Shown here: positions 4,738 through 4,857 of the stretch, piece after piece
How positions within the stretch are numbered: the stretch's first letter is position 1
How the letters are laid out: the number at the start of each line of letters is the position of its first letter
Assembly (NCBI GenBank): GCA_947623725.1
Contig: CANQHI010000004.1
Span: 764-64,763 of the forward strand
Origin: an uncultured Clostridia bacterium
Lineage (GTDB): Bacteria; Bacillota; Clostridia; TANB77; CAG-508
Length of the DNA stretch: 64,000 nt
Direction: 5' to 3'
Program-made: the position numbers and the translations under genes
Notes under the pieces: model-generated
Database searches by the model: none
Seen by the model: the letters and a program-made list of their open reading frames with translations, nothing else
What the model was told of the DNA's origin: nothing

Positions 4738-4857
4738 AATTCAAAATATTATAATTTTTTATGGCTTGTTGTCGCTAGAAAGTAGCAAGCTACTTTCGCT
4801 CCATTCGCACTTCGTTTGGTCGCTACGCGCCAATAAAAAATTATAATATTTTGAATT
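4738..4857. repeat. GC-rich hairpin core inside 25-bp AT-rich inverted repeats (copy 1)
   Basis: Arm 4738..4762 is the exact reverse complement of 4833..4857. The roughly 70-bp core is far more GC-rich than its surroundings and contains the 8-bp stem 4778..4785 with 4790..4797. A homologous copy lies at 39028..39152. Confidence 0.85.

Follow-up and report, generated by a model that had tools for sequence, protein, structure and literature searches.

What is a hairpin of 120 nucleotides (nt) doing between spoIIIAE and spoIIIAF, inside an operon that is needed for sporulation? The question is raised by a stretch of 64,000 nt from an uncultured Clostridia bacterium (contig CANQHI010000004.1, positions 764 to 64,763), which we call the window, at its full length of 64 kb. 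The hairpin lies at 4738-4857 of this window and is referred to below as copy 1; a second copy in the same stretch is copy 2. We think it reasonably probable that copy 1 belongs to a small, non-coding, palindromic repeat family, restricted to one clade and similar both to transposable elements of the miniature inverted-repeat kind (MITEs) and to repetitive extragenic palindromic (REP) elements. The family matches no described one, and we file it neither as MITE nor as REP. What is new here is a palindromic intergenic repeat whose distinctive traits are a conserved centre, arms that evolve in concert and a flip in place. Throughout, E+ denotes the strand of the element that is drawn as the plus strand of the window and E- the opposite strand.

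Copy 1 and its family

The two arms of copy 1 are 25 nt long, 100% reverse complementary and 70 nt apart, and matches to their sequence occur in the window at these two places only (0.01 expected by chance). The arms have 4% GC and the core between them 52.9%, in a window with 26.7%; the two GC-richest stretches of 70 nt in the 64 kb are the cores of copies 1 and 2. Within the core of copy 1 there are four TCGC motifs, and 4778-4786 pairs with 4789-4797 in a hairpin that is effectively 8 bp long. According to NCBIfam the neighbouring genes, all on the minus strand, are spoIIIAE (4879-6099), spoIIIAF (4178-4705) and spoIIIAG (3449-4051). Folded as a whole, the element reaches -41 to -42 kcal/mol on either strand, with z = -6.9 to -8.6; the core folded alone is not unusually stable (z about -1).

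Most of what the original prediction had read from the letters alone was borne out: the perfect inverted arms of 25 bp, the GC-rich core of about 70 bp, the four TCGC/GCGA motifs with the 8-bp hairpin, the location between spoIIIAE and spoIIIAF, and the statement that the element is neither a tRNA nor coding. ARAGORN found no tRNA or tmRNA gene at the element, and a coding peptide was rejected because the short open reading frames (ORFs) differ between copies and none is conserved. The proposed stable CUUG tetraloop stood only in part. The hairpin loop of copy 1, CAAG, does read CUUG on the minus strand, but the loop is not conserved across copies (ATAAA, TAAA, CTAG and TGAC are among those found on E+ elsewhere) and is hence incidental. 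Rfam 15 gave 0 matches at gathering score in the window. When the E-value was relaxed up to 10 the best weak matches were models of microRNA precursors, because the element is a long hairpin. We also rejected a hammerhead or other ribozyme and a tRNA-like cloverleaf, since there is no CUGANGA/GAAA core in the right arrangement and no support from Rfam or ARAGORN.

The features of copy 1 are listed here; P1 and P3 are paired stems, and R1 is a covariance model of the core only.

4738-4762, no strand: left AT-rich arm, 25 nt, 4% GC, perfect reverse complement of 4833-4857
4763-4832, plus strand: GC-rich core, 97.2 bits with R1
4763-4765 with 4829-4831: P1 (GGC with GCC); the conserved 63-nt block is 4766-4828
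4778-4797, no strand: variable hairpin P3 (GAAAGTAGC-AA-GCTACTTTC), an inverted repeat
4833-4857, no strand: right AT-rich arm, perfect complement of 4738-4762
4748-4775, minus strand: promoter-like site, GCGACA in the core, 16 nt, TATAAT in the arm; points at spoIIIAF, 10/12

The family comprises at least 17 full copies, together with partial ones, from 4 or 5 closely related uncultured rabbit-gut Clostridia and from one metagenome contig of the Joint Genome Institute (JGI). Its range is a single narrow lineage among the Clostridia of the rabbit gut, close to 'Clostridium sp. CAG:793', whose RelA is 86% identical to the RelA of one of the loci. When a genome collection with one genome per prokaryotic species was scanned with the core pattern, matches were found only in two rabbit-gut metagenome-assembled genomes (MAGs) named 'uncultured Clostridia bacterium', at 10 loci, nine in Lapin-005__bin108 and one in Lapin-030__bin100. 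One MAG carries 10 full copies at 9 loci on separate contigs, and the window carries 2 in 64 kb; the DNA of the window itself occurs in rabbit-gut metagenome runs. We compared the two window copies (win_c1 and win_c2) with related loci and contigs numbered L001 to L028. In the window and L001-L012, R1 retrieves 14 full copies at 80-101 bits, with partial copies in L003, L004 and L009. Further full copies lie in L023 and in the JGI contig L027, and fragmentary contigs from several gut metagenomes hold additional variants. R1 found no copy in about 100 kb of sister lineages (L013-L022, with GalE 87-89% and SpoIIIAF 55-59% identical to the window), nor in a further ~32 kb of sister-lineage loci (L024-L026). 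No match to either of two patterns was found in viral contigs.

The JGI metagenomes gave no match in a first scan; a second, looser one yielded L027, a true member, and L028, which probably matches by chance. The copy in L027, at about 590-760 on the minus strand, is the only clear JGI member of the family; its P3 is much shorter, and it directly follows a terminator hairpin of canonical form, which contains GC and has a T tract (AGATGGGATTTTATATCTCATCTTTTTTT). The match in L028 (11831-11888, in a contig with 41% GC) consists of part of the core pattern (CCTCCATTCGCCTAGGTTGGTCGCTACGC), scores 16.6 bits and lacks AT-rich arms; about one chance match to the pattern concerned is expected.

The original prediction had also noticed a second copy 34 kb away, which we locate at about 39028-39152, and it had counted a total of two copies, with no conservation elsewhere and no RNA signal, as speaking against its reading; the census goes beyond two copies, with many more in close relatives. 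Copy 2 has the same orientation as copy 1, is 83% identical to it over 110 nt and adjoins galE (39166-40164 in NCBIfam). The outer part of its left arm is unlike that of copy 1, with a matching change in the right arm, and the three pairs by which its P3 differs from that of copy 1 are all fully compensated. Its features are these.

39028-39050, no strand: perfect part of the left arm (AAAAAAATAAAATATTATAATTT), complementary to 39130-39152
39054-39125, plus strand: core with P1, 90.8 bits with R1
39054-39058 with 39121-39125: P1 (GTGGT with ACCAC); the conserved block is 39059-39120
39070-39078 with 39081-39089: P3
39130-39152, no strand: right arm, complementary to 39028-39050
38999-39165, no strand: approximate inserted DNA, ~167 nt, from the comparison of filled and empty sites
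39041-39068, minus strand: promoter-like site, GCGACA, 16 nt, TATAAT; points at the DUF378 gene, 10/12

Empty sites and insertion

Judged by alignment with relatives, the element is an insertion at the loci compared, because sister lineages without copies show short empty sites at all three loci checked. The spacer between spoIIIAE and spoIIIAF measures 12-16 nt in L014-L017, just the ribosome-binding site, versus 173 nt in the window; at this site the element is also present in L005 and L011. Between galE and the DUF378 gene, six sister-lineage contigs (L017-L022) have 84 nt versus 251 nt in the window, and apart from the ~167 nt extra the window spacer aligns with the empty form. L026, which is CAG:793-like, has a relA-hisS spacer of 19 nt; this spacer measures about 206 nt in L023, and L003 has one of about 360 nt. 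None of the three empty sites has a pre-existing palindrome, and the arms were therefore not present before insertion. The empty sites that the original prediction had proposed to look for in relatives are present in sister lineages at three loci. Its suggestion of a MITE-like insertion holds for the dispersed copies and for these empty sites, but the arms do not behave as classical terminal inverted repeats.

Both window copies bring about 160 nt of extra DNA, ~40 nt more than the 120-nt hairpin unit. All three compared insertions lie directly after the stop codon of the upstream gene; that of copy 2 begins directly after the galE stop codon (39166-39168), and its limit towards the DUF378 gene is placed approximately. 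Most copies have a stop codon within roughly 10-70 nt, and two are situated between genes that converge. A weak 8-nt direct repeat, ATATAAAA, is seen at the two ends of the insert of copy 2, in AT-rich DNA and by comparison with empty sites from diverged lineages. Among Logan contigs, those of run X6 contain one possible empty-site joint (38958 to 39163), in contigs that are short and shallow.

Two of the three compared insertions (spoIIIAE|AF and relA|hisS) split tight gene pairs. The element cannot be a strong terminator, because these pairs, 12-19 nt apart in relatives, are probably co-transcribed. An intrinsic terminator has a short GC-rich stem directly before a U tract, and the element differs from this: its T tracts are part of the AT-rich stem, where they pair with A tracts.

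Some loci carry more than one copy, or less than one. The array between relA and hisS holds two full copies and a partial one in L003, and one full copy and a 14-nt remnant in L023, two loci with 99% identical RelA (the arrays compared are L003 615-1015 and L023 8180-8425). The partial copies of L003 and L009 keep only the 3' half of the core, directly after stop codons, and in L004 a degenerate copy stands beside an intact one. In positions 1-100 of L012, a contig of 1066 nt at about 2x depth, the spoIIIAE stop codon and TTG run directly into the final ~20 nt of core sequence (TTTGGTCGCTACGCACCAC), with the right arm behind it. Either the left arm and most of the core were lost here by a natural deletion, or the contig is misassembled.

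Two sister-lineage loci show other repeats at comparable places. In L013, at about 300-470 (SpoIIIAF 59% identical), an unrelated spacer of 167 nt separates spoIIIAE from spoIIIAF and has an imperfect inverted repeat, CTATAAAATTTTTTATA ... TTTTTTTATAAAAGTTTATAG; another kind of hairpin element may have inserted independently at this junction. In L024, at 5072-5275, where relA is followed by a murT-like gene, we found ~4 tandem AT-rich units of about 41 nt (AAAATTGAAACAAAAACAAGTAGAGTGATAAAGCCC).

Conserved core, covarying arms and the orientation of the core

Read from the outside in on E+, the unit consists of an A/T arm of 20-25 nt with an A-rich outer end, 2-3 pyrimidines, P1 of 4-5 bp, the 63-nt block, the second half of P1, a loop of 3-6 nt (TTCAA, TGCAG or TACAAG) and an arm that is T-rich at its outer end. 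The block itself is composed of TTGYTGTCGC, the variable hairpin P3 and GCTCCATTCGC-RCTTCGY-TTGRTCGCTRCGC. It is nearly invariant among the copies, which were collected with scan patterns that fixed 21-25 core bases as invariant; TTGYTGTCGC and TCGCTRCGC, which were free in the first pattern, are equally constant. The outer ends of the element have no defining sequence, and we met no terminal repeats common to all copies.

The arms show the opposite pattern to the core. Between subfamilies they are barely alignable, whereas within a copy generous alignments give 452 Watson-Crick pairs versus 33 mismatches. Double-sided changes affect 14 of 18 arm pairs, a value that 0 of 500 shuffles reach. 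In a MAFFT alignment 96.8% of cells pair and 22 of 38 pairs are double-sided, with no shuffled or slid control near. P1 covaries in the same way (GTGGC/GCCAC, GTATC/GATAC, GTTGT/ACAAC, GTCC/GGAC). At the spoIIIA site the outer ~19 nt of the arm are identical in L005, and in L011 the substitutions are mirrored in both arms (..AAAATATT.. / ..AATATTTT.. in the window versus ..AAACTATT.. / ..AATAGTTT.. in L011). Non-orthologous copies with similar cores have similar arms as well. They form a subfamily A (win_c1 with its counterparts in L005 and L011, win_c2, L010) and a subfamily B (L004, L006, L007, L009), within which the arms are homologous and therefore move with the core.

This bears on whether the arms belong to the element at all. 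One might suppose that only a core of roughly 75 nt is mobile, that it enters the loops of existing AT-rich terminator hairpins and that the arms are host sequence. Native AT-rich hairpins, long and with A and T tracts, are indeed numerous in the window, copies lie just past stop codons, the arms are A-rich at the outer 5' end and T-rich at the outer 3' end, and arm sequences vary between copies. But filled sites gain about 160 nt and not 75, no such palindrome exists at the spoIIIAE|AF, relA|hisS and galE|DUF378 empty sites, and the homology of arms between non-orthologous copies means that they moved with the core. Arms derived from pre-existing terminator hairpins are ruled out by the empty sites taken together with this homology, so that the idea is largely refuted and we give it almost no credence. 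The native hairpins themselves (16-25 bp with A and T tracts, at 34987-35046, 17560-17619, 22752-22793, 29750-29807 and 59041-59083) are probably the usual terminators of this genome and resemble the arms of the element.

The spoIIIA site also allows the same copy to be compared between lineages. L005 and the window are collinear over 3.1 kb with 87% identity. In the intergenic DNA the flanks correspond position by position, as do the arms; the core aligns only after reverse-complementing. Once flipped in silico, the 63-nt block differs from L005 at 2 positions, with a few more differences at the arm junctions. A third lineage, L011, has the core in the orientation of L005, and the most parsimonious account of these alignments is one core inversion in the lineage of the window. 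This inversion is the most unusual feature and was beyond the reach of the original prediction. In that lineage the asymmetric inner loop has given way to further, perfectly paired palindrome (TTTTTTAT-GGC ... GCC-AATAAAAAA), and this accounts for the 25 perfect arm bases seen at the outset. Logan contigs from four runs of the source sample contain no strand-switch joint at copy 1, at a depth of about 4x and in contigs that drop rare variants. Template switching between short inverted repeats is known to homogenise arms and to invert spacers (PMC8604942; see also PMC8794818).

The core has changed little in place. The block of the window is identical to that of L011 at 63/63 positions and to that of L005 at 61/63; in the same comparisons the neighbouring genes spoIIIAE and spoIIIAF are 80-92% identical at their third codon positions. 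The two differences between the window and L005 are both sides of one pair of a small hairpin, P4. About 10 changes would be expected in the core at about 16% neutral divergence, and it is therefore held by selection or by gene conversion from other copies.

Should one then regard the element as a structured RNA family, cis-acting or released from host transcripts, in which the RNA is the functional unit and genomic spread is secondary? On E+ the core can be drawn as a three-way junction, with closing stem P2, P3, P4 and the joining sequence GCUCCAUU, set on P1 and the AU-rich duplex, from which RNase III would free an RNA of roughly 75 nt. Its helices covary and its junction sequences are invariant. 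All 4 of 4 P1 pairs show double-sided changes, and the scheme holds the only two double-sided covariations within the core, 39:101 in P2 (UA in 8 copies, CG in 6) and 81:91 in P4 (GC in 11, AU in 3). The 14 scripted copies have nine P3 sequences, to which metagenome contigs add two more, and every one of the 14 is a hairpin of 7-9 bp (13 are perfect, and L003a has one internal mismatch). In L003 the unit with a variant core, L003b, has P4 lengthened by a compensated insertion (GCAC-TGC-GTGC). The persistence of the core in place beyond synonymous sites speaks in the same direction. A lean towards E+ comes from four invariant G.U pairs that are A.C on E-, from arm mismatches that are G.T five times and A.C twice, and from E+ being the sense strand of the upstream gene at about 8/11 independent sites.

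Yet none of these strand biases is significant. Watson-Crick covariation is symmetric, so the counts are significant on both strands, and the attempt to tell the strands apart by covariation was given up. The consensus fold is equal or better on E- (-30.0 kcal/mol versus -22.2 for E+), the element occurs in both orientations relative to transcription and one site is flipped. Sister lineages lack it at three loci and in about 125 kb of their DNA, so it is not a conserved cellular RNA, and it matches no Rfam family. Furthermore, template switching yields covariation in arms and hairpins without selection on an RNA (PMC8794818, PMC8604942). Weighing both sides, we consider an RNA family an unlikely answer, and continue to favour a MITE/REP-like repeat. 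The other two options of the original prediction, an RNA processing or stability element and a new small RNA, are nevertheless kept in play, as rivals or as a secondary function, by the conservation of the core in place and by the covarying helices.

The inverted core suggests another kind of switch, because the element carries what looks like a promoter. On E- the invariant GCGACA, near one end of the core, is followed after 16-17 nt by a hexamer in the arm. In a miniature inversion switch (an inverton) GCGACA would be the -35-like motif, each palindromic arm would supply a -10-like hexamer, and a flip of the core would turn an outward promoter round, so that it aims at spoIIIAF in the window but antisense into spoIIIAE in L005 and L011. 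Related genomes do have the core in opposite orientations at one and the same site, with identical arms on either side. The hexamer is TATAAT (6/6) with the spacing kept in all copies of subfamily A. Scored at 10/12, the site comes first in a promoter scan at copy 1 and shares first place at copy 2, and the putative promoter points at the downstream gene in both window copies. However, promoter-like matches in these AT-rich regions are not more numerous than expected from shuffles, the hexamer matches at 3-5/6 outside subfamily A (five copies reach no more than 3-4/6), and the direction at most sites would be antisense into the upstream gene. Among three lineages a single inversion is seen, the contigs of the sample (about 4x) show no mixed orientation, and no invertase was identified at the annotated loci, which are those where we looked. 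To our knowledge, moreover, the invertible segments of known site-specific inversion systems are longer than 70 bp. An inverton is thus very doubtful, and we keep the GCGACA/TATAAT site as a lead only, a candidate promoter by its motifs.

Place among small repeats, and other repeats of the window

How does the favoured family compare with those already described? Like MITEs, it is below 500 bp, non-coding and dispersed, with presence or absence at orthologous sites; unlike them it lacks terminal repeats of conserved sequence, since its arms are conserved only within subfamilies. Among MITEs it resembles in particular the Correia elements of Neisseria (CREE/NEMIS): these too are small (the present element has about 120-160 nt), non-coding and dispersed, with inverted repeats of about 25 bp, lie inside operons or next to genes, have filled and empty sites and form a long hairpin when transcribed. 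Correia elements can also supply promoter hexamers. The differences are that here the repeats are the least conserved part and the centre the most conserved, that we saw no TA or otherwise clean duplication of the target and know of no parent insertion sequence, and that the sequence is unrelated and the host a low-GC Clostridia. Invertons such as fim, hin and the RecV-dependent ones of Clostridioides difficile share a segment between inverted repeats of 20-30 bp found in both orientations, with a promoter-like sequence that turns with the flip. But their recombinase recognises the repeats and not the core, whereas here the same core occurs at many loci, the segment is far shorter, the flip is seen between lineages only and no invertase was identified at the annotated loci.

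More distant likenesses exist. The GC clusters of yeast mitochondria are short GC-rich hairpin modules in AT-rich intergenic DNA, and hairpin elements of sponge mitochondria are likewise short GC-rich, mobile-looking modules in such DNA (PMC2800124); both are analogies only, from organelle genomes, with unrelated sequences and other architectures. Template-switch (quasipalindrome) mutagenesis predicts arms that are perfect within a copy and different between copies, as well as a flip of the spacer (PMC8604942, PMC8794818), yet it is a mutational process and not an element family, and leaves the conservation of the core and the spread of copies unexplained. Finally, the REP, BIME and REPIN elements of Proteobacteria, mobilised by the RAYT Y1 HUH transposases, are extragenic palindromes placed after stop codons and inside operons, sometimes in tandem arrays of variable copy number; they form hairpins, with proposed roles in mRNA stability or termination, and REPINs form a long hairpin with a spacer (PMC3116915, PMC3333891). 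REP units, in contrast, have 20-40 nt and a GTAG head, and the present element has a non-palindromic conserved core of 63 nt without a shared GTAG head. REPINs conserve the arms and vary the loop, the reverse of what we see, and there is no sequence similarity.

For the MITE/REP-like family we propose the following history. The unit consists of the conserved core, P1, the asymmetric internal loop and AT-rich arms of 20-25 bp, and its arms move together with the core. After insertion the arms would evolve in concert, as template switching or recombination between them copies one onto the other, and the same process would occasionally flip the spacer. In the mRNA of an operon the element would fold at about -40 kcal/mol into a hairpin whose AU-rich duplex is perfect over at least 20 bp, a likely substrate for RNase III or barrier to exonucleases, and this would uncouple or modulate the expression of the flanking cistrons, as REP, ERIC and Correia elements do. 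In Correia transcripts RNase III cuts at the inverted repeats, and mRNA levels change under the influence of ERIC elements (PMC10969869). By this analogy, the likeliest consequence in the window would be a change in how the spoIIIAA-AE and spoIIIAF-AH parts of the transcript are processed or in how stable they are. The near-invariant core would most likely be the site of a mobilising or binding protein.

Several points weigh against this proposal. We identified no transposase, recombinase or autonomous parent in the genome pieces of 8-21 kb each; the integrase genes that we saw lie only in loci without the element. No target-site duplication is clean at either copy, and copy 1 shows no clear candidate. 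MITEs normally conserve their terminal repeats more than any other part, and here these are the least conserved. A core conserved beyond synonymous sites is unexpected for a purely selfish, decaying insertion and points to selection or gene conversion, while the conservation among paralogues is in part ascertainment, given the 21-25 bases that the scan patterns forced. The effect at the RNA level is one that we infer throughout, and the terminator scan found no terminator-like site at copies 1 and 2. Documented template-switch inversions, moreover, mostly concern spacers of a few bases and not of 70 nt (PMC8604942).

A further reading takes the 63-nt core as more than a signal for transposition: a functional module under purifying selection in the host, namely a new three-way-junction RNA or a single-stranded DNA structure. 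Its carrier would be an AU-rich stem that homogenises itself, operon transcripts would be the source from which it is freed or read out (e.g. by RNase III), and the flip of the DNA would set its activity. We regard this as quite improbable. If true, it would be a new kind of portable, orientation-switchable intercistronic regulator, found here in the spoIIIA sporulation operon.

Whatever the core does, the family reverses the usual logic of small repeats, as its ends vary and its centre is conserved. It offers a clean natural example of concerted arm evolution and of the flip of a 70-nt spacer within an operon needed for sporulation, and it may serve as a marker for strain typing in the lineage. 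If the core is functional, as protein site, RNA or switch, the element would be a portable regulatory cassette of an uncultured, very AT-rich lineage of gut Clostridia. If instead the element is nothing but selfish DNA, it still shows that tight junctions of 12-19 nt between cistrons can tolerate the insertion of a 160-nt hairpin, and 'compensatory' covariation is not by itself evidence for a functional RNA.

The window holds a second set of modules, AT-rich and ~190 nt long, at 2266-2464, 11285-11474, 32560-32744 and 34970-35151. Perfect, copy-specific inverted repeats of 22-31 nt surround a core of 137-138 nt, and three of the modules lie 105-121 nt upstream of minus-strand genes (555-2150, 9884-11164 and 31469-32455). 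We considered a sister mobile family and rejected it, because the core is a conserved upstream region found in the same orientation downstream of spoIIIAH in L011 and, in part, in L014-L016. From these alignments the set looks like a conserved promoter or leader region common to paralogous genes. Downstream of two of the modules, nearly identical stretches of 36 nt (2059-2094 and 11073-11108) stand at the starts of a 531-aa ORF (555-2150) and a 426-aa ORF (9884-11164), which suggests that the two are paralogous and have a common N-terminal segment, possibly a signal peptide.

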